From positions 1,632,001-1,696,000 of the forward strand of contig OZ242011.1 in assembly GCA_965204755.1 (NCBI GenBank): a stretch of 64,000 bases of DNA, given 5' to 3'. How positions within the stretch are numbered: the stretch's first letter is position 1; the number at the start of each line of letters is the position of its first letter. The notes below the pieces were generated by a model. That model saw nothing but the letters and a program-made list of their open reading frames with translations, made no database searches and was not told where the DNA came from. The position numbers and the translations under genes were made by a program. The stretch is from Candidatus Marinacidobacterium sp. Lineage in GTDB: Bacteria; Acidobacteriota; Vicinamibacteria; Marinacidobacterales; Marinacidobacteraceae. Shown here in pieces: positions 15,323 to 30,595 of this stretch.

Positions 15323-15875
15323 CCGGAGGGCGGAGGTTCTTGACCGGTTGGGGGTCGTCGCCGGCGGGGGTGTTGTGCTGCATGATGATCTGCCAGCGGT
15401 CGCCGCGGTGGATGTAGGTCATCGTGTAGCGGCCTTCGTGGACGGTCATGCGCTGCTTGCCGTCGTAGAGGACGGAGAGCGCGTACTCGCCGTAGGCGAT
15501 GCCGGTGCCGCCGATCACCCGGTACTGCTCGTTGGAGGTGCGGAACTCGGCGCCGGTGGTGTTGTCGAAGAACAGGCGCCAATCTATGGCGCAGGCTTCG
15601 CGGCCCTGTTTCCCGGAGGTCGGGCCGCAGGCGTAGAACGACAGCGCCTCGTCGTGGACGGTGTCGAGGAAGCCGTCGAGGTCGCCGGAGTTCAGGGCGG
15701 CGACAGCGCCTTCGAAGGTCTCCTGGAGGGCGGCGACTTCGTCGGAGCGGTTTGCGGAGGCGGAGGCGATCCAGGACGCCAGCAGCAGGGCACCGGCGGC
15801 GAGGAGCGAGGCCGCGAGGCCCCGGTTCCGGCCGCAGCAGCGGCCCGTGGAGGGGGAAGAAGGGACGAAGATCAT
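15315..15875 (-). CDS. Secreted NTF2/SnoaL-like (DUF4440-type) protein
   Basis: Hydrophobic signal, then ALNSGDLDGFL...GRYTMTY...WQIIMQH. Start uncertain (15875 or 15896). Confidence 0.75.
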   Translation of the reverse strand: MIFVPSSPSTGRCCGRNRGLAASLLAAGALLLASWIASASANRSDEVAALQETFEGAVAALNSGDLDGFLDTVHDEALSFYACGPTSGKQGREACAIDWRLFFDNTTGAEFRTSNEQYRVIGGTGIAYGEYALSVLYDGKQRMTVHEGRYTMTYIHRGDRWQIIMQHNTPAGDDPQPVKNLRPPGE

Positions 15876-15956
15876 GGTCGCGCCGAACCCTACCACCGGA
15901 GGGGGCCGGCCGAAGGCGTCCGGACCGCCGGTCGGCGCGACGCCCCCGGCGGCGGG

Positions 15957-18170
15957 TCAGAAACTCTTCAGGTAGGTCAACTTCATCACCGCGGTGCGGC
16001 GGGTCCAGCGGCGGGCTCGGGGGTCGAGGTCGTCGTCGGTGAGGTAGCCGGTGTCGAGCACCAGGAACAGGTCGCTGCCCGGCGTGTGGATCCAGTCCAC
16101 GCGGATGTTGGCCTGCAACTCCTTCGACAGGTCGTCCCACTGGACGAGCGCGTTGGCGAAGAGTTTCCGGCTGACCGCGGCGCCGATGTCGAAAGCCAGC
16201 AGGGTGGCGGTGAAGTCGCCGTCGGGGACCGGCAGCGACACGGCGCTCCGGGAGAGTCGCGCCCCGACGGTCAGGTGCGGGCCGGTCTTCACCGTCAGGC
16301 CGCCCTCCAGACTGGTCCGGGTCCCGTTCCAGAAGCCGCCGGTGGTCAACTCCGCGCCTCCCGACAGCGCGCGGCTGTCGTTCGTCCGGAACTCCAGGTC
16401 GTAGGAGCGGAACCGGTAGTCGCCGGGCGCGAGCGTCCGGCCGCGGATCGAATCCGGCCCGCCCAAGCGCTCGAACCGGTCGTCCAACTCCACCTCCAAA
16501 CTGTCCCCCGACTCGAACTCGAAACCGAGTTCGGCATTGACCAGGCGGGACTGCAACTCGCCGTCCGTGCCGTGGATCCGCTCCCCGCCGAGCGAGAGCG
16601 CGGCTTCGCGGGCCCAGTCGCTCTGCTCGAATCTCGGCTCGAAACCGGTCCACAGGTACCAAGCGTCCTGGTCGGGCCGGCGGACGAAGCCGAGCGCCGG
16701 ATCGAAGTTCCGGCCGACATGCGATCTCCCGACGCTCAACGAGTACCGGTCGTTCTCCAGGTCGAGCGCCGCCTCCCCGGCGCGGCTGTCCGACCGGAAC
16801 TCGCCGGTGGTTTCGTCCCGGACCGCGGCGCCCCAGAGGCGGAGCGCCGAACTGGTGAAGAACCGGGCGTGGAGGTCCGCGCCGACCGCGCGGCTGCCCG
16901 CTTCGCCGTCCGGGTCGAGGCTGGTGGCGATGACTCCGAGGGTGGTGCGTTCCCGGAGGTCGGCGCGCAGGCGGAGCACCGAGTTCCACGCCGCGGAGGC
17001 CCGGTCGCCGTCCGGCGAGCCGGCGCCGGTGCGGAGCGCGAGCGCGCCGATGGAGAACGGGCCGGCCTGTCCGGTGAGCCGGCCGCCGCCCAGGATGCCG
17101 CCGTCGAGCCCGACCCGCCGGCTGAAGAAGACTTCGGTATCGCGCGAGTTACCGAACTGGAAGAGGCCGGCGCGTTCGAGGAAGAACTCGCGCTTCTCCG
17201 GGAAGAACAGGTCGAAGCGCGTCAGGTTGATCTGGACATTGTCGGACTCGACCTGCGCGAAGTCGGTATTCCAGGTGAGGTCGAGCGTCAGGTTCGGCGT
17301 CACCCGGTACTTGAGGTCCGCGCCCGCCTTCCCCTGCGCGTCGAACCCGGTTTCGCCGGCGGGCTGCTGCGCGCCGAGCGAACCGTAGGGTTTCAACTCC
17401 AGGTGCCGGCCCCGGCGCACGCCTTCGAGCCCGACGAGCGTCGCGTACTGCGATACCTGGGCGATGCCCGCCCGGTAGTCCTGCCCGATGTGCGGCCATA
17501 CCACCGTCTCGTTCTTCCGGCGGATGGAGCGCGAAAACGCGATGCCCATCACCGGCTCCTCCACATCGGCGAACCGGATCGTGGTGAAGGGGATCGCCAT
17601 CTCGAGGACCCAGCCGTCTTCGTCCACCGTGGTTTCGGTGGTGAAGACCCCGTCCCAATTCCAGTCTTCCCGGTCGAGGCTCTCGTCGGAGAGGAGGGCG
17701 TCGTCCTGGGTTCCGAGCGCGCCCACTTCGAAGATGTAGGCGTTCTTGCGGTCGTGGTAGGTGTCGAGGCCGATGATGACCCGGTCGTCCTTGTCTATGC
17801 GGCCGCCCCGTTCGAGGATCGCCCGCCGGATGCGTTCCGGTTCGGAGTCGAAGAAGCGGAAACCGAAGTAGAGCGCGTTCTCGTCGTAGGCGATCCGCAC
17901 TTCGGTCGGCTCGCTCGCGGGAGCCCCGTCCACCGGCGCGCGTTGGCGGAAGCCGGTGATCGACGGTATGCCGCGCCACGGGGAGTCGTCGAGCACGCCG
18001 TCGATTTCGGGCGGCGTCGAGACGCGGACGGCGCGAACGACCGGCGCCGAGTCCCGCCCGGCGGTCGGTTGGGCGGCGGCGGCGCATGGCGCGGCGAGCG
18101 CGACGAGCGCGGCAGGCGCGACGGGCAGGAGCGCGCCCGAAGTGAGCAGGGACGGAGGGCGGCGGGACAC
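15957..18170 (-). CDS. CBM9-like + DUF5916 outer-membrane protein
   Basis: PEIDGVLDD, TEVRIAYD, WVLEMAIPF, NTDFAQVESD, FFPEKREFFLE, terminal Phe. Start approximate. Confidence 0.82.
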   Translation of the reverse strand: MSRRPPSLLTSGALLPVAPAALVALAAPCAAAAQPTAGRDSAPVVRAVRVSTPPEIDGVLDDSPWRGIPSITGFRQRAPVDGAPASEPTEVRIAYDENALYFGFRFFDSEPERIRRAILERGGRIDKDDRVIIGLDTYHDRKNAYIFEVGALGTQDDALLSDESLDREDWNWDGVFTTETTVDEDGWVLEMAIPFTTIRFADVEEPVMGIAFSRSIRRKNETVVWPHIGQDYRAGIAQVSQYATLVGLEGVRRGRHLELKPYGSLGAQQPAGETGFDAQGKAGADLKYRVTPNLTLDLTWNTDFAQVESDNVQINLTRFDLFFPEKREFFLERAGLFQFGNSRDTEVFFSRRVGLDGGILGGGRLTGQAGPFSIGALALRTGAGSPDGDRASAAWNSVLRLRADLRERTTLGVIATSLDPDGEAGSRAVGADLHARFFTSSALRLWGAAVRDETTGEFRSDSRAGEAALDLENDRYSLSVGRSHVGRNFDPALGFVRRPDQDAWYLWTGFEPRFEQSDWAREAALSLGGERIHGTDGELQSRLVNAELGFEFESGDSLEVELDDRFERLGGPDSIRGRTLAPGDYRFRSYDLEFRTNDSRALSGGAELTTGGFWNGTRTSLEGGLTVKTGPHLTVGARLSRSAVSLPVPDGDFTATLLAFDIGAAVSRKLFANALVQWDDLSKELQANIRVDWIHTPGSDLFLVLDTGYLTDDDLDPRARRWTRRTAVMKLTYLKSF

Positions 18171-18315
18171 GGGGAGTCGCTGAGTCGGAACGCCGGCGGG
18201 GGTCTTCGGTTCCGATGGCGGCTCCGTGCGGCGCGGATGGTACGCCGCGCCGCGCGGCGAGTCCCCCGCTCCGTCCCGCTCTCCGCCCTTTGCTCCCGCC
18301 GCTACCCTTCGGGCG

Positions 18316-19038
18316 ATGTCCGCGCTCCGTTCCCTCCGCGTTCCCGCTCCGCGGTCCGTCTTCCGCCCTCTCGCCGCCGCCGCCGCCCTCGCCGCCGCCA
18401 TCTTCTCCGCGGCAACCGGCGCGGCCGGCGGCGGGAACGAACCGTCCCCGCGGCCCGCACAGGCGGAGGAACGCTCCGCGCGCGTGGTCTTCGAGACGCC
18501 GCGCGGGGAGATCGAAGTCGCCCTCCTTCCCGACCGCGCCCCGGTCTCGGTGGCGCAGTTCCTCCGCTATGTGGACGGCGGCCACTACGACGGCGCCGCC
18601 TTCTACCGCGCCACCCGCACCGCCTCCGGCGCGGCCTTCGACATCGTCCAGGGCGGCCTCCGCCGTCTCCCGATGCTCACCGGCGCCACCGGCGAAGCCG
18701 AAGAGGAGCCGCCGTTCCCGCCCATACCCCACGAGACCACGGACGAAACCGGCCTCCCGAACGAGCGCGGCGTCCTCGCCTACGCCCGCCGGGACCCCGG
18801 CACCGCCAACTCCGAGTTCTTCTTCAACCTGGGGCCGAACCGGGTGCTGGACAGCGGCGTGGACACTCCGGGACGGGACGGCTTCGGCTACGCCACCTTC
18901 GGCCGGGTGACCCGTGGCCTCGAAGTGCTCGACGCCATCCAGCAGTCGCCGACCGACGCCCCGACCGAGGTCGAAGTCGTCCGGGGCCAGATCCTGAACG
19001 ACCCCGTCCCCATCCTCCGCATCCGCCGGGTCGAGTAG
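18316..19038 (+). CDS. Cyclophilin-type peptidyl-prolyl isomerase (secreted)
   Basis: APVSVAQFLRYV..GHYDG..FYR, IVQGG, ANSEFFFN, GYATFGRV. Confidence 0.88.
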   Translation: MSALRSLRVPAPRSVFRPLAAAAALAAAIFSAATGAAGGGNEPSPRPAQAEERSARVVFETPRGEIEVALLPDRAPVSVAQFLRYVDGGHYDGAAFYRATRTASGAAFDIVQGGLRRLPMLTGATGEAEEEPPFPPIPHETTDETGLPNERGVLAYARRDPGTANSEFFFNLGPNRVLDSGVDTPGRDGFGYATFGRVTRGLEVLDAIQQSPTDAPTEVEVVRGQILNDPVPILRIRRVE

Positions 19039-19326
19039 TTCCCGCGGGCGGCGGCGCCTCGCCGTCCGACCCCGCCGGCGCCCCCGCCGAAGGGGTGACG
19101 GTTTTCGTCGTGGCCCTTACCGAGGGTTCCCGGCGGCTTCGAAGCGCTCGACGCCGGCGATGTCGAGCGCGCCGGCCATTCCCCGGCCGGCGGAATGGAA
19201 ATCCTGCGGACTCGGCAGACGGTCTCCGGGCAACGCGCCGCCGACCCGGCTCGACTCGAGGAAGATTCGGCGACGCCCGAGGAACCGCGCCACCTGCGGC
19301 GCAAAGGAAACGATCCAATACGCGTC

Positions 19327-22302
19327 ATGAACGAGAACGACACCGCGCTCGCCCGCGGCTACCTGTCGAACGCGATCCGTTCGGCCTTCAGTAACGACAA
19401 ACGCGCCATCGCCCTGGCCAAGTGGCTCCGCCGCTACGACGACGAACTGGAAGAAGACGGAATCGCCGACCTGCGGGCGCTGTGCGAGGCGCACCAGGAA
19501 TCCGCGGAGCAGGAATCCGAGCCGAAGGACGAGCCCCCGACGACCCTCTGGCGGCCTTCCGGCCCCGAGGCGCCTCTCGGCGAGGCGGCGAGGGCCCGAC
19601 ACCTGCTGTCCCGGGCGGACGCCGCGCTTCGAGCGGAGTCCGACGGCGCGTCGACCGACGAACACTTCCGGAACAGCCCGACGGCCCGGGCGGCCTCCCT
19701 GTTCGCCTCCCGCCTCGGCCTCGGCCCGGCGGCGGCCGCGGTGCTGCACCTGGGCCACCTGTATGTCGAGTGGAGCGCGGTCGAACACCTCTACGACCAC
19801 CTCCACGAAACGCGAAAGGACATGGCGGCCACCAGCGCGACGCTCCTCGGCGTCCGCCGGCGGGAAGTCACCGACGCGTTGCTCGCGCTGCTGGAGTTCG
19901 GCTTCGGCGACCGCAGTTACTGGTACTCGGACCGCGGCCTCGGGTCGTTCGCGAACGACATCGAAGCCATCTGGCAGCCTCCGGTACGGAACGACGCGGA
20001 ATTGCTGGAGCGCCTCGTGGGGCGTCCGTCCGAGCCTTCCCTCGATCTCGACGACTTCCCCCACCTGGACGCGCGGGACGACGCGGTCCGCCTCCTCGCC
20101 GGCGCGCTGCGGCAGTCCACGCCGGGCGTGAACATCCTGCTCCACGGACGCGCCGGGACCGGCAAGACCGAGTTCGCCAAGACGCTGGCCGCCGCGGCGG
20201 GAGGCCGCCTCTATTCCACCGGCGAGCCGGAGGCCGAAGGCGAATCCCGAGGCGGCAACCCGGGCATCGACCGGCGCAACGATCTCCGCCGGGCCGACCG
20301 CCTGCTCTGGACCGAAGGCGACGCCGTCCTCCTCTGCGACGAACTCGACGAGGTCTTCGACGCCGGCGAAAAGGGTTCCCGCGTGTCGCGGCTCCGCCTG
20401 CTGGAAGACAACCGCACGCCGACCATCTACACCGCGAACCGGATCGGCGACCTCGACGAAGCGGTCCTCCGCCGCTTCATGCTGATCGCGCGCTTCACCG
20501 CGCTTTCGCCCGGCCGCCGGACGGACATGAACCGCCGGATCCTGGCGGGCGCCGACCTTCCGAAAGTCGCCGACGCCGATGCGCTGGCGGCGCGCCTGTC
20601 CGACGAACTCGAAGCCGCGCCCGGAGTGCTGGCGCAGGCGATCCGGGTCACCGGCCTCACCGGGGGCGGGGACGACGAACTCTTCCGCCACGCCGAACGC
20701 ATCGAGCGCGCGATCTCCCGCAACCGGGCCCGCCCGCGGCTCGGCCCGCCGGTCGGGGCGAAACACCCGTGGTCGGCCTTCGCCCACCTCGGCAAGCACG
20801 CCCGGGATGTGCGCGACTCGCTGGCGGCCGCGGTCTTCGGCGGTGAAGACGGCGCCGGTTCCGGCGCCCGGGCGGAGCGCCGAACGGGCGTCAACCTGCT
20901 CTTCTACGGGCCTCCCGGCACCGGCAAGACCGAATTCGCGCGGACGCTCTGCGCCGAGATCGGCGCGCGGCTCTATTCCGTCGGCGAAAAGGAGTTCGGC
21001 CCCGACGCCCGCGCCGCCGCGGATCGCTTCGACAGTCTGGAGTACGCGCTCGAAGCGCTCGCCGACGAGCCGGGAACCGCGCTCCTCTTCGACGAGATGG
21101 AGGACCTGCCCGCGCTCATGCCCAAGCAGTGGCTGAACGGCGTGCTCGAAGCGAACCCGGTCCCCATCCTCTGGGCGGCCAACTCCACCGACTACTACCG
21201 GGAGGTCGAGCCGTTCTTCCTCGACCGGATGCTGCACGCCCTCGAGTTCCGCGCGGTTCCCGCCGTCCGGCGGAAGAAGATCTACGACCGCATCCTTTCG
21301 CGGCGCGGTCTCGCCGAGGAAGCGTCCGCGCAACTGGCCGGCGAGTTCGCCCGGATGCCCGATGTGACGCCGCGCCAGGTGACGCTCGCGTCCTCGTGGG
21401 CCGCGGTCCGCGACGGCGACGCCGACGGGATCCGTCGAAACCTCGCCCGGAAGCGCCGCCTCCGCCGCGGCGCCGCTCCGGCCGCGCCGCCTTCGCCGTC
21501 CCGCTACGACGCGAAACTCCTGCGCGCCGACTGCGACCTGGTGGAACTCGCCGACCGGATCGTGGCCGGCGGCCCCCGGCGCATGGGTCTGCTGTTCTCC
21601 GGGCCTCCCGGCGCCGGCAAGACCGCTTTCGTCCGCCACCTCGCGGAGCGCTGGGAGCGCGAGACGCTTTCCCGCCGCGCCTCCGACCTGCTCGGCCGGT
21701 ATGTCGGCGACAACGAGCGCAACCTCGCCCGCGCCTTCGAGGAAGCCCGCGACCTCGACGCGATCCTGGTGCTGGACGAGGCGGACTCCCTGCTCGCCGA
21801 CCGCCGGGGCGCCGACACGCACTGGCAGGTCGGACTGGTGAACGAACTCCTGAGCCAGATGGAGTCGCATCCGCTCCCCTTCGCCTGCACCACGAACCTC
21901 TCGGACGCGCTCGATCCGGCGTCGCTGCGGCGCTTCCTGTTCCGCGCGAAGTTCCGCTTCCTCGACGGCCCGCGCATCGCCCGCGCCTTCCGCCTGTTCT
22001 TCGACGCCGACGCTTCCCCCGAGGTGCGCGGCCTCCCCGGTCTCACCCCGGCGGACTTCGCGCTCGTCCGCGAACGCGCCGCGGTGCTGGACTTCCTCGA
22101 CGACGCCGACCGCATCACCGAGGAACTGCGCAAGGAGTCCGCCGTCAAGGAGCCCCGCCTCCCCCGCGCCGTCGGTTTCGCTCCGGTCGGCGACGGGAAG
22201 GACGCCGACCGCCCCGCCGCGCCCCGGACCGCGCCCCGGCCCGCGCCGCCGGCGCCGAGTCCCTGCCGGAAACGCGAACGCTCCCCCCGGAGTCCGCGAT
22301 GA
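19327..22302 (+). CDS. AAA+ ATPase with three tandem AAA modules
   Basis: Walker A: GRAGTGKT, GPPGTGKT, GPPGAGKT. Walker B: LLCDE, LLFDE, LVLDE. SRH: LDEAVLRRF and LDPASLRRF. Start inferred. Confidence 0.88.
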   Translation: MNENDTALARGYLSNAIRSAFSNDKRAIALAKWLRRYDDELEEDGIADLRALCEAHQESAEQESEPKDEPPTTLWRPSGPEAPLGEAARARHLLSRADAALRAESDGASTDEHFRNSPTARAASLFASRLGLGPAAAAVLHLGHLYVEWSAVEHLYDHLHETRKDMAATSATLLGVRRREVTDALLALLEFGFGDRSYWYSDRGLGSFANDIEAIWQPPVRNDAELLERLVGRPSEPSLDLDDFPHLDARDDAVRLLAGALRQSTPGVNILLHGRAGTGKTEFAKTLAAAAGGRLYSTGEPEAEGESRGGNPGIDRRNDLRRADRLLWTEGDAVLLCDELDEVFDAGEKGSRVSRLRLLEDNRTPTIYTANRIGDLDEAVLRRFMLIARFTALSPGRRTDMNRRILAGADLPKVADADALAARLSDELEAAPGVLAQAIRVTGLTGGGDDELFRHAERIERAISRNRARPRLGPPVGAKHPWSAFAHLGKHARDVRDSLAAAVFGGEDGAGSGARAERRTGVNLLFYGPPGTGKTEFARTLCAEIGARLYSVGEKEFGPDARAAADRFDSLEYALEALADEPGTALLFDEMEDLPALMPKQWLNGVLEANPVPILWAANSTDYYREVEPFFLDRMLHALEFRAVPAVRRKKIYDRILSRRGLAEEASAQLAGEFARMPDVTPRQVTLASSWAAVRDGDADGIRRNLARKRRLRRGAAPAAPPSPSRYDAKLLRADCDLVELADRIVAGGPRRMGLLFSGPPGAGKTAFVRHLAERWERETLSRRASDLLGRYVGDNERNLARAFEEARDLDAILVLDEADSLLADRRGADTHWQVGLVNELLSQMESHPLPFACTTNLSDALDPASLRRFLFRAKFRFLDGPRIARAFRLFFDADASPEVRGLPGLTPADFALVRERAAVLDFLDDADRITEELRKESAVKEPRLPRAVGFAPVGDGKDADRPAAPRTAPRPAPPAPSPCRKRERSPRSPR

Positions 22303-25300
22303 GGGTTCCCGACGGGTTGCTGGAGTCCGTCGTCGGTCTCGCCGCCGCGAGCGCCGGGAAGACCGGGCTACGCGCCGCCGTAAGCCGCGCGGCGATCGCC
22401 GGCCTGACCGCGGTCGGCCTTCCGTCGCGCCTGAGGGACCGGTACGGGGATACCGCGCTGTACCGCGCGGTCGATGCGAACCGGTCCCCGGAGACGCTGT
22501 CGGCGTTGCTCGCGGCCGGAGTGCCGGCGAACGCGCCCGAGGGGAGACGGGAAACGCCGCTGCATCGCGCGGCCAAGGACAACGCCGGGCCCGCCGTATT
22601 CGAAGTCCTGCTCCGGGCCGGAGCGGAGGTCGGCGCGACGGAGTGGGGCTCCGTGACGCCCCTCCACGACGCGGCGGCCCACTGTTCGGATCCGGCCGTC
22701 ATCGGGATCCTGCTGGCGGCGGGCGCGAAGGTCGATGCGAAGAGCCAGGAAGGGTTTCCGCTGCATCGGGCTGCCGGGAAGAACCCGAATCCCGCCGTCG
22801 TCGAGGCGCTGCTCGCCGCGGGTGCGGAGGTCAACGCGAAAAGTTGGAGGGAGAGGCCCCTGCATCGGGCAGCGGCGGACAACCCGAATCCCGCCGTCGT
22901 CGAGGCGCTGCTCGCCGCGGGTGCGGAGGTCAACGCGAAGAGTCGGAGGGGGACGCCTCTGCATCGGGCGGCGGCGGACAACCCGAATCCCGCCGTCATC
23001 GAGACGCTGCTCGCCGCCGGCGCGGAGGTCAACGCCACGCGCCGGGGAGAGACGCCTCTGCATCGGGCGGCCGCGCACAACCCGAATGCCGAGGTGATCG
23101 AAGTCCTCCTGGCGGCGGGAGCCGATACCGGCGCCCGCAGTGAGTACGGCCGAAACACGCCGCTCCATGAAGCCGCCGTCCACGGTCAGGACCTCGCCGT
23201 CATCGAGGCCCTCGTCGCCGGCGGCGCCGACCTCGACGCGACCGACGGTTTCGGACAGACGCCCCTGCACCGCTCCGCGTCGAGCGGTTCGCCGGAGGTG
23301 ATCGAGGCGCTCGTCGCCGCCGGCGCCGCCGTCGACTCCCGCGACCGCCTGGGGTGGACGCCGCTGCACACCGCGGCCTACGACAACTTCAACGCCGGAG
23401 TCGCGGAGATCCTCCTCAAGGCCGGCAGCGATCCGGAGGCCGGGGACCGGCGCGGCAGAACCCCGCTTCACCTGGCGGCCATGATCCGCCGTCCGCCGGC
23501 CTTGCCCTGCGCCCAAAGCGTGATACCCCGTCGCAAGGCGGTGAAGAACGCCCTCCTGGCCGCCGGCGCGGACACCGACGCGCGGGACAACGCCGACCGG
23601 CGCCCGTTCGACCGGAAGTCCGTAGAGCAGGAGATCCACCCCCCACGCGGGGAACGCGCGGACCGGACGCTGGTCGTCGGCGAATCGCAGGTCGCGGCGA
23701 TCGCGTTCGACGCTCCGGTCCGCGTGGAAGTGACGAACATCTCCGGATCCGTCGCCGTCGAGCCGTACCGCCGCCGCGGCGTCTTCCGCATCGTCGGCCG
23801 GAAACCCGGGCGCTCGGTCGTTCACTTCTTTCGAGGGGGCTGCTGGGGATCCGGCGAGTCGGCGGATGAGCCGGGCTCCCTGAGCGGTATCCGGCATACC
23901 CTCGGCAGTCGCTTCGGGCGGCGGCCGCGGTACGCGTTCACCTTGTCCTTCGAGGTGGTCTCGCCGCTCCTCGCGGCCGCCCGGAGGGATCCGAACCCGG
24001 AGGTCATCGCCGGACTGGTGGCCGCCGGGGAAGATCTGCGCGCATCCGACGAGCGCGGAAGGACGCTGCTCGACCTCGCCATCTCACGCGGGGGCGGAGC
24101 GCCGGGGGCGGTGGACGCGCTGCTCGACGCCGGCGTCGACGCCACTTGGACCAAGTTCGAGAACATGCCGCTGCACCGCGCCGCCCGCTACTCCACCCGG
24201 CCGGAAATCATCCGGTCACTCGTCTCCGCCGGCGCCGAAGTCGGCGCTCGCTGGCCGATCGTCAGCAAACACAACGAAACGCCGCTGCACTTCGCCGCCA
24301 GGCACAACCCGAACCCCGCGGTCATCGAGGAGTTGGCGGCGGCCGGGGCGAAGGTCGGGGCGCGCGCTCGGAACAAACGGACGCCGCTCCACCTCGCGGC
24401 GTCGCGGAACCCGAATCCGCAGGTCCTCCGGGCGCTCGCCAACCGGGGCGCGAAACTCGACGCCCGCGACCACCGGCGGCGGACGGCGCTGCGCCTCGCC
24501 GTCCTCCGCCGCGCGGAACCCGGAGTCCTCGCCGAGTTGCTGGCGGCGGGCGCCGACCCGAACGCCCGCGACGAGGACGGACGGACAGCGCTGCACCTCG
24601 CGGTTTCCCCGCCGCCGGAGGACGCGCGCTTCCCGCTGCCGGACGGCGAACGAATCCGGGAGACCGTCGGGATTCTCCTGCGCGCCGGCGCGGCCGTCGA
24701 CGCCCGGGACACGGGCGGCCGGTCGCCGCTCCACGACGCCGCGCGGGGTTCGCAGGATTCCCCGAGTTCAGCAGTCGGGATCGAGACGCTCGTGGATGCC
24801 GGCGCCGGCTTGGAGGATCGCGACCGCCACGGGCGCGCGCCGCTCCACCTGGCGGCGGCATACGGTTCGACGGCGCCCGTCGAAGCGCTCCTCCGCGCCG
24901 GCGCGGACCCGAATCGGCGCGACGACGGCGGCGAAACCGCGCTCCACGCCCTTGCCGCGCGGTGCGACGCGACGGCAGACGCCTTCGAGGCGCTCCTCGA
25001 CGCCGGCGGCCGGCGCGACCTCCGGAATCACCGGGGCGAAACCCCGGCCGAGCGCGGCGCGCTCCATCGGAACACGGCGGTCTTCGGGGCGCTTCACCCG
25101 GCGGCGGCGCTTCGAGACGCGGCGGCCGTAGAGGAGGCGAGGCGCTGGATCCGGCGCCACGCCAAACGATTGGGGCATTCTCGCGCCTTCTGCTCGAAGC
25201 GCCTCGGCGCCTGCGACGGGGTCATCCGGCCCCGACCGCTCGAAATCGTCCGAAGCGGCGAAGAGATTTCGCCCGAGGCCCGTCGACTGCTGGACGGTAT

Positions 25301-25787
25301 CGCCTGCCGCTGCGCCGGGCATCCGGCGGTGGGGAAGCGTTTCCTCAAGAAGGTCTGGATCTTCGAGCGGGTTCCTCCGCCGCCGGTCTTCCCTCCGCGC
25401 GGGCCGGCGCGAGATCCGATCTACCGGGGCGAGGAGGTCTTCTACGGACTGCGAAGCGGCCCCGCCGCGCGGCAGGCGATCCGCTGGCTCGACCGTCACG
25501 CGGAAGGTCTGCGGAGGCAGCCGTTCTTCTCGGGCCTTTCGTTCTCCGCGCGGGGGCCGGTGATGGCCCCGGACCTCTCGACCGTCGTCGAGCGTTGGGG
25601 CTTGTCCGATCCCTGGGAGGGGCTGACTTACCGGAGCCGGGAACTCCTCAAGCGTCTCCCGCGTCGGCGCGACGACCAGGTGTGGCCCCGTTTCGTGAGG
25701 ATCGCGAGGGTGTACCAGCGGACGAGCGTGGAGTTCTCCCGCAGCATGGCGGGGTCTTCGAGTCCGGATCGGGGAACGGCCCGATGA
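22299..25787 (+). CDS. Large ankyrin-repeat protein (~21 repeats) with an inserted beta domain and duplicated C-terminal domain
   Basis: Repeated TPLH.AA..N.NP.V.E.LLAAGA.VNA units. ATGA overlap with the AAA gene stop. Confidence 0.9.
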   Translation: MRVPDGLLESVVGLAAASAGKTGLRAAVSRAAIAGLTAVGLPSRLRDRYGDTALYRAVDANRSPETLSALLAAGVPANAPEGRRETPLHRAAKDNAGPAVFEVLLRAGAEVGATEWGSVTPLHDAAAHCSDPAVIGILLAAGAKVDAKSQEGFPLHRAAGKNPNPAVVEALLAAGAEVNAKSWRERPLHRAAADNPNPAVVEALLAAGAEVNAKSRRGTPLHRAAADNPNPAVIETLLAAGAEVNATRRGETPLHRAAAHNPNAEVIEVLLAAGADTGARSEYGRNTPLHEAAVHGQDLAVIEALVAGGADLDATDGFGQTPLHRSASSGSPEVIEALVAAGAAVDSRDRLGWTPLHTAAYDNFNAGVAEILLKAGSDPEAGDRRGRTPLHLAAMIRRPPALPCAQSVIPRRKAVKNALLAAGADTDARDNADRRPFDRKSVEQEIHPPRGERADRTLVVGESQVAAIAFDAPVRVEVTNISGSVAVEPYRRRGVFRIVGRKPGRSVVHFFRGGCWGSGESADEPGSLSGIRHTLGSRFGRRPRYAFTLSFEVVSPLLAAARRDPNPEVIAGLVAAGEDLRASDERGRTLLDLAISRGGGAPGAVDALLDAGVDATWTKFENMPLHRAARYSTRPEIIRSLVSAGAEVGARWPIVSKHNETPLHFAARHNPNPAVIEELAAAGAKVGARARNKRTPLHLAASRNPNPQVLRALANRGAKLDARDHRRRTALRLAVLRRAEPGVLAELLAAGADPNARDEDGRTALHLAVSPPPEDARFPLPDGERIRETVGILLRAGAAVDARDTGGRSPLHDAARGSQDSPSSAVGIETLVDAGAGLEDRDRHGRAPLHLAAAYGSTAPVEALLRAGADPNRRDDGGETALHALAARCDATADAFEALLDAGGRRDLRNHRGETPAERGALHRNTAVFGALHPAAALRDAAAVEEARRWIRRHAKRLGHSRAFCSKRLGACDGVIRPRPLEIVRSGEEISPEARRLLDGIACRCAGHPAVGKRFLKKVWIFERVPPPPVFPPRGPARDPIYRGEEVFYGLRSGPAARQAIRWLDRHAEGLRRQPFFSGLSFSARGPVMAPDLSTVVERWGLSDPWEGLTYRSRELLKRLPRRRDDQVWPRFVRIARVYQRTSVEFSRSMAGSSSPDRGTAR
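22761..23110 (+). repeat. Four 99-bp coding tandem repeats (recent ankyrin expansion)
   Basis: CTGCATCGGG recurs at 22761, 22860, 22959 and 23058 with near-identical intervening DNA. Confidence 0.9.
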
Positions 25788-26413
25788 CCTGGCTGCTGCT
25801 TCCGCTCGCTTTCGCCGCCGGAATGGCGCTCCGCCTGTGGTTGCTCCACCGGTGGGCGGAAGGCGCGCTGCGACACGAGTCCTTCTCCGAGGCCGTGTTC
25901 CAGCGTTGGCGGGGACGACCCATGGGAATGGTGTTCTCCGTGGCTTCGGGTTTCGCCGAGGAGAAGGAATTCGGCGTCCTGCTGGACGAGGTCCGCGAGA
26001 CCGTTCGCCTCTCGTCGGGTTCCCGACCGGATGAGAGGATCGGCGAGGAGATCGGCTCGTTGCTGCGCCTCCGGAGAATCGTCGAGGAGGCGATCTCGCC
26101 GAAGGGCGTCGAGGACGGAAGCCGCGGACCGCGCGCCGTGGAACTCGGCGACTCGCGGTCGGCCCTGCTGCTGCCGATCTACGCGGCCGCCCTGCCGCTG
26201 GTCGGGATCGCCATGGCCGGCGTTTGGATCTTCGCCCATGTGATGCCCACTTCCTGGATCGCCGGAAGGCTGGAGAAGAACTACGGCATCGACGCCTCGA
26301 AGGTCGTGGGTCAGGTCGGAGGCGTCACCCTCATGTTGGCCGACGACGACGACGAAGACGAAGCGGAAGAAGACGAGGACGAAGAGACGCCGGCCCCGGA
26401 GGACGACCGATGA
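25784..26413 (+). CDS. Hypothetical membrane protein with acidic C-terminal tail
   Basis: ATGA overlap. N-terminal TM MTWLLLPLAFAAGMALRLWLLHR, second TM LLLPIYAAALPLVGIAMAGVWIF, tail DDDDEDEAEEDEDEE. Confidence 0.75.
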   Translation: MTWLLLPLAFAAGMALRLWLLHRWAEGALRHESFSEAVFQRWRGRPMGMVFSVASGFAEEKEFGVLLDEVRETVRLSSGSRPDERIGEEIGSLLRLRRIVEEAISPKGVEDGSRGPRAVELGDSRSALLLPIYAAALPLVGIAMAGVWIFAHVMPTSWIAGRLEKNYGIDASKVVGQVGGVTLMLADDDDEDEAEEDEDEETPAPEDDR

Positions 26414-26709
26414 TCTGGTTCGCGCTTCCGGTGGCGTTCCTCCTGGGAATGGACTGTTGCCGGTGGCTCCTTCACCGCCGGGTGGGGCTGCGGTTGCGCG
26501 CCGCCGCCTCTTCCGGGGGCGCCGCCGCCGACGGAGGCTTCGCCGCGGCGTTCTGCGACCGCCTCGCCGCCGCCGGGCTCGTCGAGGACATCTCCGCCGT
26601 CGCGGGACTCAGGAATCGCGAAGGACGCGCCGAGAGGATCCGCGCCCTGCGCCGCTTCGAGGAGAACTCGAAGACCGATCGCGGGCCGGGCGCCCCGACG
26701 ACTCCGTAG
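26410..26709 (+). CDS. Small hypothetical membrane protein, N-terminus paralogous to the previous gene
   Basis: ATGA overlap. MIWFALPVAFLLGMDCCRWLLHRR. Confidence 0.65.
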   Translation: MIWFALPVAFLLGMDCCRWLLHRRVGLRLRAAASSGGAAADGGFAAAFCDRLAAAGLVEDISAVAGLRNREGRAERIRALRRFEENSKTDRGPGAPTTP

Positions 26710-26740
26710 CGGCGGGCGCCCCGTTCAGGCCGCCCGCCGC
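26709..26740. terminator. GC hairpin between convergent genes
   Basis: GCGGCGGGCG...CGCCCGCCGC 10-bp stem. No U-tract. Confidence 0.4.
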
Positions 26741-26747
26741 GGCGGGT

Positions 26748-27269
26748 TCACCGCGGGCGGGTCGAGCGGTCGGCCCGATCGCGGAGCGGGTATCGCCGGC
26801 GATACCCGGCCATGGCGATTCCCGCGGCGACGCTCACATTCAGGGAGTTGAACATCCACCTCATGGGGATGTGGGCGAAGGAACCGCACACGGCGCGGGC
26901 CTCCGGGGACAACTCCCGCTCCGAACCCAGGACCAGGGCGGCTTTCTCCGGGAGGTCGAATACCGTCGGGCAGTCCGGGTTCGGGTCGAGGCCGATGACC
27001 TGCCAACCCTTCTCCTTCAGGGAGACCAGGTCCGCCAGGAGGCGGTCACTCGTCTCCACCGGATGATGGGTGAGCGCCCCGGCGGCGCACTTCCGCACGA
27101 CTTTCACGAACCTCCCGTCCCTCGAGAACAGGTCGGCCGCGGCGAGGACCCGGAAGTCGAAAGCGGCGGCGGACCGAAGGATGGCGCCCAGGTTGCCGGG
27201 CTGGCGAATCTCGGGCACGACGAGGATCGGATCCTCCGGTCGGTCGGGCGTCGAAAGGTGCGGGGCCAT
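26748..27269 (-). CDS. TrmH/SpoU family RNA methyltransferase (catalytic domain)
   Basis: PGNLGAILRSA, LVLGSE, HIPM...SLNVSVAAGI. Start uncertain. Confidence 0.85.
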   Translation of the reverse strand: MAPHLSTPDRPEDPILVVPEIRQPGNLGAILRSAAAFDFRVLAAADLFSRDGRFVKVVRKCAAGALTHHPVETSDRLLADLVSLKEKGWQVIGLDPNPDCPTVFDLPEKAALVLGSERELSPEARAVCGSFAHIPMRWMFNSLNVSVAAGIAMAGYRRRYPLRDRADRSTRPR

Positions 27270-27492
27270 CTGCGAGACCGAAGACCGTACGGTCGAACCC
27301 CGCCCGCGGGCGGTTCCTTCACCGGAAGCGCCGGCTCGTTCATCGGACGGATATCGAGGCGGGAAGAACACCCGGCGTTCGCCCCGGAAGAGGACGACGA
27401 AGACCCTCTTCGGTGAACGGACGGGGGCGTCCCGTTGGTTTCCTCGGTATCCGCGTCGAGAGGCGGCAGAATCGCTCGCCCGGGAAAAACCA

Positions 27493-27855
27493 ATGACTTC
27501 CGAACTCACGACCATCGGCCGCCTCCGACGATTCTTCGTCCGGATGTTCGGATTCCAGGAGGTGCTCGAACTCGTCGGCCCGCGCTGCCCTCGGTGCTAC
27601 TCGATCGATCCGGATCACGCCGCGCACGGGGATGGCGACACCGAATGGTGGAAGTGTCGGCGGTGCCGCCATCGGTTCAGCGGCCCGGTAGGCCCGTGCT
27701 GGATGGGAGAAGAAAACCTCGGCCCGCGCTGCCCCGAATGTTTCGCTGCCGATCCGTTTCACTGGGTGAACGGGACCGACTGGACTTGCGAGAAATGCGG
27801 CCACAACTGGGATGAAGGCCCGACTCTGGACGCGTTTCTCCGACCCGACAGTTGA
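27493..27855 (+). CDS. Small protein with two tandem zinc ribbons
   Basis: GPRCPRC...WKCRRC and GPRCPEC...WTCEKC. Confidence 0.7.
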   Translation: MTSELTTIGRLRRFFVRMFGFQEVLELVGPRCPRCYSIDPDHAAHGDGDTEWWKCRRCRHRFSGPVGPCWMGEENLGPRCPECFAADPFHWVNGTDWTCEKCGHNWDEGPTLDAFLRPDS

Positions 27856-27914
27856 CCGGGTGTCGTTCTCCGGAAATCCGGAAACGAAGTCTGCGTTACC
27901 CGCTCCGGGCGCAC

Positions 27915-28364
27915 CTATACACGATTCGCGCCACCTATACACAATACGGGGCAGCTATACACAATTCCCGTCAGCTATACACAATTCCCGTCAGCTATAC
28001 ACAATTCCAGTCAGCTATACACAATTCCCCTCGGCTATACACAATTCGGCGGCAGCTATACACAATTCCGCGCCGGCTATACACAATTCGCTCGCACCTA
28101 TACACAATTCCGCGTCGGCCATACCCGGTCGATCCTGTCCGTAAACGATCCGCCACTTCACCCTCAGGGCTCGTTTTCGGCCTTACGAGCCCCCGGAGGC
28201 GACATCCATGGGCGCACTTCGGTCGCCGGCGAGTACTTGCGCAGGGTTGCGCGCCGCGCCGCCGCGCCGCGCCCGACCGAACCCGGCCACCTATACACAA
28301 TTCCCGATGCAGCTATACACAATTCGCGCCGGCTATACACAATTCGGGCAGCTATACACAATTC
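27915..28364. repeat. Phased direct-repeat array, 14 x CTATACACAATT in two clusters (10 + 4)
   Basis: Copies at 27915, 27935, 27955, 27975, 27995, 28015, 28035, 28056, 28077, 28098, then 28291, 28313, 28333, 28352. Variable GC-rich spacers of 7-10 bp. Confidence 0.95.
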
Positions 28365-28471
28365 GCGCCGGCCTTCGCGGCGCCGAACGAGCCACTCCCG
28401 TCGCGTGGAAGAACGCTCGGCGCTCGCGCCGGACGACCGGCGGTCGGGCGCGTCGAGCCGGACCTGGATCG

Positions 28472-29140
28472 TCAGAGTATCGCGCCCCGGTATCCACACC
28501 CCATCCGCAACTTGAGGAGCAGTACCGTGCGACCGCCCGTGTCGACTTCCAACCCGTTCGGGTCGTCGAAGTCTTCTTCGAAGATCAAGCCGTTGGGGTC
28601 GGACAAGACCACGGCCGCATGGTCGGGGGTTCCCGCCAAGTTGGCCTGGACGAGTTCCGCCGGGTGGGTTCGATACCACGCCTCCTCGTCTTCAACGAGG
28701 AGGTTGAAGCGATTCAACCACAGGCAATCGAAGCGATACGCCGGTTCTTCGGCGCGGAAGGGAGTGAACACCAAGGCGCCGCAGGCCCCAAGGCTCCTTC
28801 GCTGGTTCCGACCCGGAGTCGTCTCGTTCACCGAGTCCAGTGCCCTTTTGAACCTGGACAACAGGTCGGGGCAGGCCCCGCCCCGTTCCTCGATTTCCGG
28901 GAAGATGCTCCACCTCTCCCGATTCTTTCCGAAGGACTTGATGTGGCGGATCGACTCGTCCCGAAAATCGTGGAGCCAGGAGCACTTCGCAGCGTCCGTC
29001 ACCGGCAGGAGGAGGCGATGCGTGTACTCCTCTCCCGTATACCGGATGATCTCGTCGGGGCGGAATCGAGGAACGAACGAAAGGCGATCGATTCCGTCGC
29101 GCCTGGGGTTGCGCGTGAAGACGGTGTCCAGGTGGATCAT
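28472..29140 (-). CDS. Hypothetical protein
   Basis: 222-aa ATG ORF with protein-like composition. No family recognised. Confidence 0.6.
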   Translation of the reverse strand: MIHLDTVFTRNPRRDGIDRLSFVPRFRPDEIIRYTGEEYTHRLLLPVTDAAKCSWLHDFRDESIRHIKSFGKNRERWSIFPEIEERGGACPDLLSRFKRALDSVNETTPGRNQRRSLGACGALVFTPFRAEEPAYRFDCLWLNRFNLLVEDEEAWYRTHPAELVQANLAGTPDHAAVVLSDPNGLIFEEDFDDPNGLEVDTGGRTVLLLKLRMGCGYRGAIL

Positions 29141-29227
29141 GCGGGGACCTGCTCTGCGGTTTCGCTCGAGAGGGATCGAGGACGGGATGTCCTTCCCGGC
29201 CCCGGCGGCGTTGGTGTCGGTGGAGAG

Positions 29228-29304
29228 TGGTAGGCCCGACTGGACTTGAACCAGCGCCCTCCGGTTTATCAGACCGGCGATCTAACCTGCTGATCTACGG
29301 GCCT
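29228..29304 (-). tRNA. tRNA-Ile: tRNA-Ile (GAT)
   Basis: AGGCCCG TA GATC AGCAGGTTA GATC G CCGGT CT GAT AA ACCGG AGGGC GCTGG TTCAAGT CCAGT CGGGCCT A CCA forms a full cloverleaf with encoded CCA. Confidence 0.95.
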
Positions 29305-29413: not shown

Positions 29414-30595
29414 TCAGCCGGGAGGACGGAGGGGCAGGGCCGCGACGCGGGCGAGCGGGAGCGCGGTGATCCGGTCGCCCAGCGGATACTCGGCGTCCCC
29501 CGGATACACGACGAACAGGTGTTCGAGGTCGAGGTCCTTCGCCACCACATGCATGGACTTCGTGGTCTTCGGGGCGTCGGTGCACTGGAACTCGAAACCC
29601 CACCGGCGTCCGCGGCGAAACAGCAGCAGGTCGAGTTCCGCGCCGCGCTGCGTCCGGTAGTAGAACGCCCGGCGTTCGCCGTGGGCGGCCAGCGTCTGTT
29701 CGAGCGCGAACCCTTCCCAACTGGCGCCGTACCGCGGGTGGAGCGCCAGTTCCGCGAAGTCCTCGATCTCCAGCAGGTGGTGGAGGATGCCGCTGTCGCG
29801 GAAGTAAGTCTTCGGGGACTTCACCAGCCGCTTGCCCAGGTTCTCGAACCACGGCGGCAGCACCCGGAGCAGGAACGCGCCGGCGAGCAGGTCGCGGTAC
29901 CGATTCACGGCGGCCGGACGCGAGTCCACCGACCGGGCGAGTTCCGCCGCGTTCCAGGTCCGGCCGTGGTAGTGCGCCAGCATCCTCCACAGCCGCGAGA
30001 GCGCCGGCGCGGGCGGCGCGCCGGCGAGCAGCGGCAAGTCCCGCTCCACGAAGGTCGCGGTGAAGGTGTCCATCCACCGGGTCCAGGCGTCGTAGGAGTC
30101 CGCCAGGAAGGCGCGCGGGAAACCGCCCCGGAGCCAGAGACGCGTCAGCCGTTCGGGCCCCACTTCGCCGAGCGAAAGTCCACCGAGATTCACGAACAGG
30201 ATGCGTCCGGCGAGGCTCTCGGAAACCCCCCGCACGAGATCCGGCGAAGCGCTGCCGAGGACCAGGAACACCGCCCGGCGATCCGGATCGTCACAGACCG
30301 GGCGCAGCACCTCGAAGAGCGCCGGCAGCCGCTGGATCTCGTCGAGGACGACCAGCCCCTCCTGCTCTCGCAGGAGGCGGTCGGGGGTCGCGGTCAGCGC
30401 CTCGCGGTCGGCCGGACGCTCCAAGTCGAAGCGCGTCGTCGGGCCGTCCCAAGTCGCCGCGATTTCTCGCGCCAGCGTCGTCTTCCCCACCTGGCGCGCC
30501 CCGAGGAGCGCGGCCACCGGGCTCTCCGAGAGCGCCTGTCTCGTCGCGTCGAAGGGGGCCTCGCGACGGATCCGGTCGGATCGAGGTTGTTGCAT
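29414..30595 (-). CDS. AAA_14 ATPase + DUF4143 (PD-(D/E)XK-like) protein
   Basis: GARQVGKT, LDEIQ, LGSAS, ESLAGR, GGFP, KRLVKSPK.YFRDSG, ELDLL. Confidence 0.9.
   Translation of the reverse strand: MQQPRSDRIRREAPFDATRQALSESPVAALLGARQVGKTTLAREIAATWDGPTTRFDLERPADREALTATPDRLLREQEGLVVLDEIQRLPALFEVLRPVCDDPDRRAVFLVLGSASPDLVRGVSESLAGRILFVNLGGLSLGEVGPERLTRLWLRGGFPRAFLADSYDAWTRWMDTFTATFVERDLPLLAGAPPAPALSRLWRMLAHYHGRTWNAAELARSVDSRPAAVNRYRDLLAGAFLLRVLPPWFENLGKRLVKSPKTYFRDSGILHHLLEIEDFAELALHPRYGASWEGFALEQTLAAHGERRAFYYRTQRGAELDLLLFRRGRRWGFEFQCTDAPKTTKSMHVVAKDLDLEHLFVVYPGDAEYPLGDRITALPLARVAALPLRPPG

Follow-up and report, generated by a model that had tools for sequence, protein, structure and literature searches.

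A tightly coupled, lineage-specific gene array behind a conserved triple-AAA ATPase in the genome of a sponge-associated Candidatus Marinacidobacterium

Do four overlapping genes in the genome of a sponge-associated acidobacterium, Candidatus Marinacidobacterium sp. (Acidobacteriota, Vicinamibacteria), encode proteins that work together, or are they neighbors that share a transcript? The genes are located in a 64,000-nucleotide stretch of contig OZ242011.1 (assembly GCA_965204755.1, positions 1,632,001 to 1,696,000), called the window below, which is part of a single-contig genome of 3.98 Mb with a G+C content of about 70%. Coordinates refer to the window unless another contig or locus is named. 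The products of the genes are a triple-AAA ATPase (P0001), an ankyrin protein (P0002), and two small hydrophobic proteins (P0003 and P0004). An earlier note, prepared from the sequence alone, had proposed that they constitute a conserved four-gene system. We find that the genes are real and tightly coupled, as seen from their ATGA overlaps, third-codon-position composition, and intactness across strains. The proposed conservation does not hold, since homologs of the four genes do not co-occur in any of 80 metagenome loci, an ankyrin gene is present in one of 18 loci from relatives and the own-genome paralog, and only the ATPase family is broadly distributed. We prefer to read the locus as an accessory operon, specific to this lineage and assembled around one conserved gene, in which an ankyrin scaffold and membrane proteins stand behind a conflict-associated unfoldase, and the four products would function together; we give this reading slightly less than an even chance. 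Co-function is the best single reading because of the tight coupling of the genes and their retention.

The four genes are on the forward strand. The P0001 gene (19327..22302, 991 amino acids) is read from the ATG at position 19327. It is followed by the genes of P0002 (22299..25787, 1162 amino acids), P0003 (25784..26413, 209 amino acids), and P0004 (26410..26709, 99 amino acids), each of which overlaps the stop codon of its predecessor. In the ATGA overlaps at positions 22299, 25784, and 26410, the end of the ATG opens the TGA of the preceding gene, and a GGAG motif resembling a Shine-Dalgarno sequence is present upstream of all three consecutive overlaps. The frames translate without internal stops, and the GC content at their third codon positions is 0.84-0.90. 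Direct reading and the stop-free frames thus confirm that the four genes are chained by three ATGA overlaps. The note had also described a hairpin closing the array. A G+C hairpin is present at 26710..26741 and has a 10-bp stem (26710-26719 paired with 26732-26741). It lacks a T run, escaped the terminator scan, and has a folding stability similar to that of shuffled sequences (z = -0.97; 37 of 200 shuffles equal or better). The hairpin after the P0004 gene exists, but it is not a canonical terminator.

The array is retained among strains. The locus was identified in 19 run rows from 7 studies, which are labelled as sponge metagenome, marine metagenome, or coded organisms; none are RNA. The contigs of one sponge-metagenome run span positions 18000-22811 and 22910-27987, with the same gene order and differences of about 1.6%. 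The clusters of the ankyrin protein, P0003-like proteins, P0004-like proteins, and ATPase share identical longest-contig sizes, for example 68646, 72511, 159664, 120804, and 143370, and contigs of equal size are presumably the same contigs, linking the four genes. Because of the same-order contigs in an independent run and the equal longest-contig sizes, we consider the four-gene array to be stable and intact within a narrow clade of near-identical strains.

P0001 is composed of an N-terminal domain, three AAA modules (D1-D3), and a C-terminal tail. The Pfam family PF00004 matches three stretches of the protein (E-value 8.9e-43), best at residues 755-876. Walker A motifs are located at about residues 274-281, 528-535, and 759-766. 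In an alignment of 44 full-length P0001 homologs, over which motif conservation was measured, the Walker A lysine, Walker B Asp-Glu pair, sensor-1 asparagine, and arginine finger are conserved in 43-44 of the 44 sequences in all three modules. Each module thus has the Walker A and B motifs, sensor-1, and arginine fingers of classical AAA proteins. An aromatic-Val-Gly pore loop (residues 792-794) is confined to D3 (about residues 735-945; 21529..22161, forward strand), with the first position occupied by tyrosine in 23, tryptophan in 15, phenylalanine in 5, and leucine in 1 of the homologs. D1 and D2 lack an aromatic pore loop, and D3 is the likely threading ring of P0001. In D1 and D3, the second region of homology has an Arg-Arg-Phe form, which we take to recall the Vps4/spastin group.

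An AF2 model of P0001, built on the 44-homolog alignment, has a mean predicted local distance difference test score (pLDDT) of 80.4. It contains an all-helical N-domain (about residues 1-250), followed by three alpha/beta modules. The N-domain has invariant columns across the 44 homologs, and the homolog from locus L034 aligns to P0001 residues 4-953. The C-terminal tail, residues 943-991, is disordered and rich in proline and arginine. The best Foldseek matches are Cdc48, p97, AFG2, NVL, and Rix7 (E-value about 1e-15), and a sequence search against solved structures matched p97, Cdc48, and VAT to D3 (E-value about 1e-22). The triple-AAA ATPase named in the earlier note is therefore borne out by the three PF00004 stretches, the motif conservation, and the model.

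The ATPase gene is not restricted to the genome studied here. Thirteen of 24 other genomes of the family carry a near-full-length triple-AAA gene (E-value at most 1e-190), and three more have a partial or two-module form. Nothing above a generic AAA match was detected in 16 genomes from two other families of the order, and a query of the N-domain and D1 matched 3 of 300 other genomes of the phylum, all of them partially. A search of genome contigs for related loci, with a single protein as query, returned one locus, from a genome of the same genus. At an E-value of at most 0.001, a search with P0001 gave 749 homologs. Homologs that carry Gemmatimonadota names at NCBI are 45-48% identical to P0001, as close as those from its own family. 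A transfer of the ATPase between phyla is suggested by this identity, while 297 of the 300 own-phylum genomes are without the gene. We conclude that the family of P0001 is one of Cdc48/Vps4-like classical AAA ATPases, uncharacterized and patchy in its distribution, whose members have a helical N-domain and two or three modules.

A profile-seeded scan of metagenome contigs yielded 361 confirmed stretches, from which 80 loci were kept. Most of these loci encode forms of about 700 residues, composed of the N-domain and two AAA modules. A WYL gene is located just downstream, on the same strand, in 37 of the 80 loci. Where the sequence continues for at least 1.2 kb downstream, the count is 34 of 58 loci, or 25 of 48 after merging at 90% or higher nucleotide identity. 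Pfam identified WYL and WCX domains in 4 of 10 downstream open reading frames (ORFs) and WCX alone in a fifth. Examples of such ATPase-WYL loci, among those numbered L033-L109, are L037:7293-10458 and L047:7275-10588. Nucleases that recur near the ATPase include PD-(D/E)XK_4 (PADLOC PDC-S26), DUF2779/Cas4-like, and metallo-beta-lactamase-fold proteins, each in about 6-9 loci that are not all distinct. Of 196 candidate neighbor ORFs in 22 loci, 63 (from 15 loci) were scanned for domains; these include McrBC, RES, Fic, a UvrD-nuclease fusion, SNF2-type helicases, phage capsid and terminase, relaxase, and housekeeping genes. PADLOC identified ZacA and ZacC of Azaca beside one metagenome locus. 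WYL proteins are described in PMC10693628 as nucleotide- or single-stranded-DNA-sensing regulators of DNA-damage and phage-defence genes. The company of the ATPase family, namely the WYL regulator, nucleases, and defence and mobile genes, together with its patchy spread, points to a putative function in inter-genome conflict or DNA stress.

The same association is found elsewhere in the genome. A paralog of P0001 with 64% sequence identity is encoded in locus L013 (C1:1845000-1863000). In this locus (L013:4943-16884; ATPase to WYL at G000:C1:1851808-1859313), the gene of an AAA_22/AAA_16 protein is positioned divergently upstream of the triple-AAA ATPase gene. Downstream of the latter follow, in order, genes for a 332-residue protein without assignment, a five-segment membrane protein, a WYL-WCX protein, a DEDDh/RNase_T exonuclease, Vsr, and a C5 cytosine methylase (Dcm). 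The DEDDh exonuclease gene overlaps the stop codon of the WYL gene. The window contains no WYL homolog; the genome has only two, at C1:1858330, in the paralog locus, and at C1:2091428. In a FastTree tree of 70 proteins, rooted at the midpoint and with several long branches, all 14 proteins with three modules group in a single clade (support 100), nested among two-module ones. P0001 and the WYL-linked paralog are sisters (SH-like support 99), and the gene from the same-genus genome is placed outside both. A separate observation concerns genome G004, in which the gene of a HEC-01A-type ATPase (AAA_21/AAA_15; PADLOC E-value 1.5e-140) is positioned divergently upstream of the triple-AAA gene (L017:3995-5443, reverse strand).

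P0002 is composed of two ankyrin arrays, a β-rich insert between them, and a C-terminal domain. The family Ank_2 (PF12796) matches ten stretches of the protein (E-value 3.9e-92), in agreement with the ankyrin array claimed before. The first array comprises about residues 50-430 (22446..23588, forward strand, as for all parts of P0002) and varies among strains in its number of repeats. The insert (about residues 454-553, 23658..23957) contains strands modelled at a pLDDT of only 22-42, and has neither a Pfam match nor a tblastn match in the 80 metagenome loci. The second array comprises about residues 565-925 (23991..25073). The orphan C-terminal domain (residues 926-1162, 237 amino acids, 25074..25784) is modelled as helical, with low confidence, and contains a weak internal repeat (15 of 48 residues identical, E-value 0.001). 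In the model of P0002, paired ankyrin helices have a pLDDT of 60-90, and the insert and C-terminal domain score below 50. A word-seeded search of 5.8 billion proteins with the C-terminal domain returned five clusters of ankyrin proteins of 897-1166 residues, 89-97% identical, which are all from near relatives. The ESM Atlas yielded no usable match for this domain or for P0003.

The cluster of P0002 at 90% identity has 21 members with lengths of 1162-1166 residues. The variant P0168 lacks residues 120-286 (167 amino acids), and one contig of run X3 lacks positions 22782-22880, which are 99 nucleotides and correspond to one ankyrin repeat. The number of ankyrin repeats may be polymorphic between strains, or near-identical repeats may have been collapsed in assembly. 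The N-terminus of P0002 has no hydrophobic segment, and no 19-residue window reaches a value of 1.4. Export of the protein, if any, would need an unconventional route, since the hydrophobic N-terminal segment is missing.

Hydropathy places two hydrophobic segments in P0003, at residues 1-22 and 124-160, of which the second is strong. Behind the N-terminal hydrophobic helix and a charged middle part lies the transmembrane segment 124-160, and the protein ends, after an amphipathic stretch that is conserved, in an acidic tail. In P0004, a single weak hydrophobic segment (residues 2-21) precedes a soluble part rich in alanine and arginine. The two proteins had been described as paralogous membrane proteins. 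Both are indeed hydrophobic, but their likeness is limited to the first 23 residues, of which 13 are identical, and the segment of P0004 is weak. At the DNA level, the start regions of the two genes have a mean column identity of 79% over 141 columns. Neither protein matches any entry of Pfam, PADLOC, or NCBIfam, and a tblastn search of the own genome with E-values up to 10 detected no significant second copy of either.

Homologs of P0003 form only 14 clusters, 77-98% identical, across which the second membrane segment and the following stretch are nearly invariant. P0004 is represented by 15 distinct sequences, every one of them 99 residues long, with 92-98 of the 99 residues identical. The fixed length indicates that P0004 is probably encoded by a true gene. 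Both P0003 and P0004 look like products of genuine genes that are either very young or very fast-evolving. A predicted complex of P0002 residues 926-1162 with P0003 and P0004 reached a score of 0.12 for the partner P0004, the mark being 0.32, a result that speaks neither for nor against their association.

If the four products function together, P0001 would form a stacked hexamer, in which the third ring alone carries the substrate-threading pore loop and D3 acts as the motor. D1 and D2 may bind and hydrolyze ATP to assemble or control the complex. The ankyrin arrays of P0002 could serve as a target-binding adaptor or scaffold, and P0003 and P0004 would tether the assembly at the cytoplasmic membrane, or be its membrane-acting output. 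We hypothesize that the ATPase unfolds or remodels the target held by the ankyrin arrays, or the partner proteins themselves. The most likely role of such an assembly would be in inter-organism conflict, either in defence against phages and mobile elements or in dealing with the sponge host. A conflict role is favored because the usual neighbors of the ATPase family are a WYL regulator, nucleases, and defence genes, and host interaction is favored because of the sponge habitat.

Several observations weigh against the four products forming such an assembly. The ankyrin protein, P0003, P0004, the insert, and the C-terminal domain are absent from all 80 metagenome loci. A further 18 loci were compared, drawn from relatives and the own-genome paralog, with ankyrin high-scoring segment pairs listed from 80 bits upward. 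No P0003 or P0004 was detected by tblastn in these 18 loci, and an ankyrin gene near the ATPase gene was identified in the same-genus genome alone. There, the gene of a DUF4143 ATPase on the opposite strand separates the ATPase and ankyrin genes, and the ankyrin protein resembles P0002 through its repeats alone, without the insert or C-terminal domain. The linkage is thus unstable even within the genus, given the intervening gene and the failure to find P0003 and P0004. The own genome contains 42 Ank_2 matches in 14 open frames, so that adjacency of ATPase and ankyrin genes is by itself weak evidence. Sponge symbionts are reported to be rich in ankyrin proteins, and the abundance in this genome fits. 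Examples of the ankyrin frames are at C1:1630262, 1762315-1764603, 1864979-1873150, and 2938703-2948813, and several are within 250 kb of the window. The defence context of the relatives may not transfer to P0001, since its locus has neither a WYL gene nor a nuclease gene. We draw no order of events from the tree, since P0001 groups with the paralog, the root is at the midpoint, and branches are long.

These observations also bear on the possibility that the four genes are co-transcribed without forming a system. P0001 would then be a stand-alone ATPase with a client of its own, P0002 one among numerous eukaryote-like proteins of a sponge symbiont, and the small ORFs lineage-specific passengers that happened to enter a variable slot, and the overlaps would reflect the compact packing of a high-GC genome. 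The absence of the ankyrin gene from the metagenome loci and from 16 of 17 loci of relatives (the paralog included), the 14 ankyrin frames in the genome, and the opposite-strand gene between the ATPase and ankyrin genes in the same-genus locus agree with this explanation. So do the contents of the slot behind the ATPase gene, which in relatives are unrelated genes: in other genera they include RNase_H_2-like proteins, a PD-(D/E)XK protein, PEPCK, and proteins without assignment. In nine loci of the same family, the ATPase gene is located 1.9-7.2 kb upstream of a conserved minus-strand block, and the gene of an M14 peptidase is positioned upstream in eight of the nine; L023 contains only a fragment of it. 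The gap between the ATPase gene and the minus-strand block is a variable slot, the contents of which differ by locus. Against this explanation stand the three consecutive ATGA overlaps with upstream GGAG motifs, and the four genes being complete and collinear in strains that several studies sampled. Furthermore, P0003 and the C-terminal domain of P0002 have no homologs outside the narrow clade, and P0004 has no match in the loci searched, no wide homolog search having been made for it. The downstream trio, lacking homologs elsewhere (for P0004, within the loci searched), looks co-arisen or co-fixed. We regard the passenger explanation, the main rival of our preferred reading, as possible but rather doubtful.

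The context of the ATPase family allows a further interpretation. The ATPase may belong to a widespread conflict module of two or three genes, not described before, that would reside in defence islands and mobile elements and combine a multi-ring AAA unfoldase with a WYL-WCX sensor-regulator and, in many cases, a nuclease. The operon of P0001 would be a variant of this module, in which an ankyrin sensor and membrane outputs replace the parts directed at nucleic acids. We consider this interpretation unlikely, though worth retaining. P0001 shares the helical N-domain and AAA modules with the AAA-WYL module of its relatives, but its gene is not followed by one for a helix-turn-helix (HTH)-WYL-WCX protein. 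Described modules regulated by WYL proteins are BrxR-BREX, CapW-CBASS, PafBC, DriD, and SiwR; the relatives and paralog of P0001 likewise have an HTH-WYL-WCX gene, whereas the P0001 operon itself is without one. Neither PADLOC 2.0 nor NCBIfam has a name for the ATPase-WYL pair. In a limited search of open-access text, neither the four-gene combination nor the AAA-WYL pair is described. The text of Kaur et al. 2020 contains neither "ankyrin" nor "CDC48", and a literature search on Marinacidobacterium returned nothing.

No named system of this composition emerged from the comparison with known ones, as no threshold of a curated family or known system was reached in PADLOC or NCBIfam. The note had expected no hit from PADLOC. 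Indeed, no known system was identified, but matches below threshold appeared. Those of P0001 are to IetA (84.5 bits, on D3), TRIP13 (41.8 bits), mad8, and DolB. P0002 matches PDC-M72A (E-value 4.1e-76), PDLC02908, labelled "Ankyrin" (E-value 3e-39), and MzaA. The best NCBIfam matches of P0001 are IteA (84 bits versus a cut-off of 510), CDC48 (TIGR01243, 75 versus 802.65), and EccA (57 versus 467). We read the sub-threshold matches, such as those to IetA, TRIP13, and PDC-M72A, as reflecting the shared AAA core or ankyrin repeats. The likeness of P0002 to PDC-M72A, PDLC02908, and MzaA is probably explained by its repeats, the sigma-factor part of MzaA being unmatched, and no other PDC-M72 component has a match among P0001-P0004.

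In principle, the operon could be a diverged member of IetAS, of CBASS with TRIP13 and HORMA, of a type VII system with EccA, or of a Cdc48-like proteasome or segregase module. The PADLOC match of IetA to D3, the weak match to TRIP13, and the NCBIfam matches of IteA, CDC48, and EccA to D3 speak for such an origin. However, the scores are far below the cut-offs (84 of 510, 75 of 803, and 57 of 467) and the matches extend over a single AAA module; neither the operon nor its flanks encode a protease, HORMA, cyclase, TPR, or proteasome component; and the N-domain of P0001 is all-helical. IetA/IteA uses a single classical AAA module in defence and is the best PADLOC and NCBIfam match of P0001, but the match is limited to D3, stays below the cut-off, and links proteins that differ in length and architecture. 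Pfam scans detected no IetS-like protease in the operon or flanking genes, and neither HORMA nor CD-NTase partners of CBASS TRIP13 among the neighbors. TPR and ESX genes, which would accompany EccA in a type VII system, are likewise absent from the operon and flanks, and the EccA cut-off was missed. P0001 resembles Cdc48/p97/VAT, AFG2, and Rix7/NVL in having stacked classical AAA modules with an aromatic pore loop in the last ring. Unlike Cdc48/p97, it has three modules instead of two, an all-helical family-specific N-domain instead of a double-psi-barrel, and no aromatic pore loop in D1 and D2, and it misses the TIGR01243 cut-off. Membership in one of these known systems is close to excluded.

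The sponge habitat raises the possibility that P0002 is an effector directed at the host. The ankyrin protein would then enter sponge cells, where it could for example dampen phagocytosis, the ATPase would unfold or prime it, and the small proteins would provide a holin-like or otherwise unconventional exit. The occurrence of the locus in sponge and marine metagenome runs (the 19 rows from 7 studies) and the ankyrin-rich genome are consistent with this, as is the N-terminus of P0002, which implies that any export is unconventional. According to a 2026 paper (PMC13747020), single eukaryote-like proteins let bacteria escape sponge phagocytosis, which we count in favor of a host-directed effector. 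P0002 has long arrays and an ankyrin-rich, sponge-associated genome in common with the ankyrin eukaryote-like proteins of sponge symbionts, but differs from them in the coupling of its gene to those of an ATPase and membrane proteins, in the insert and orphan C-terminal domain, and in that no secretion signal was seen. No component of the operon resembles a secretion protein in Pfam or NCBIfam. The matches to Legionella Dot/Icm ankyrin effectors (T4SS_Ank families) are restricted to the repeats and far under the cut-offs, the best being AnkY with 186 bits versus 600. Moreover, the neighbors of the ATPase family are nucleic-acid enzymes and regulators, not exported proteins. We therefore regard a delivered effector as improbable.

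The four-gene array is flanked upstream by a cyclophilin gene (18226-19038, forward strand) and downstream by the convergent gene of a SpoU-type methylase (26748-27515, reverse strand), separated from the P0004 gene by a 38-nt gap. A forward-strand ORF at 15348-19394 (1348 codons), which overlaps the start of the P0001 gene by 68 nucleotides, was rejected as a gene: its translation is rich in arginine, glycine, and proline, and it shadows two real genes of the minus strand, one of the DUF5916/CBM9 type and one SnoaL-like. A mobile island was also rejected for the locus, as synteny with the same-genus genome includes the DUF5916/CBM9 gene upstream and the regional GC content is flat. Farther downstream, a 465-codon ORF (27852-29249, forward strand; 341 codons from the ATG at 28208) is located between the SpoU gene and a DUF4143 gene, and has no Pfam or PADLOC match. 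The latter gene (29414-30595, reverse strand) encodes a DUF4143/AAA_14 ATPase and matches the PADLOC candidate PDC-S01 (E-value 2e-83). Its homologs are located between the ATPase and ankyrin genes in the same-genus genome, and near two-module ATPase homologs in three other genomes of the family.

What the locus means depends on which reading is correct. If the four genes are mere neighbors, it is an ordinary case of a lineage gaining genes at a variable site of its chromosome. The array of four genes represents a fresh variation on a known theme, the combination of an NTPase and a repeat protein, confined to one narrow lineage. The association of the ATPase with WYL regulators is the broader and more general lead. 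The ATPase-WYL family is a candidate new defence or stress module, present across many metagenome lineages and without a name in PADLOC 2.0 and NCBIfam. If the operon is a variant of such a conflict module, it would be a defence or host-interaction device unique to this sponge symbiont. If the four products co-operate, as we prefer to think, the operon would equip a bacterium, itself the symbiont of an early-branching animal, with a Cdc48-like unfoldase that works at the membrane through an ankyrin adaptor. To our knowledge, this arrangement of an AAA unfoldase with an ankyrin adaptor at a membrane is familiar from eukaryotic AAA biology and has not been described in bacteria.

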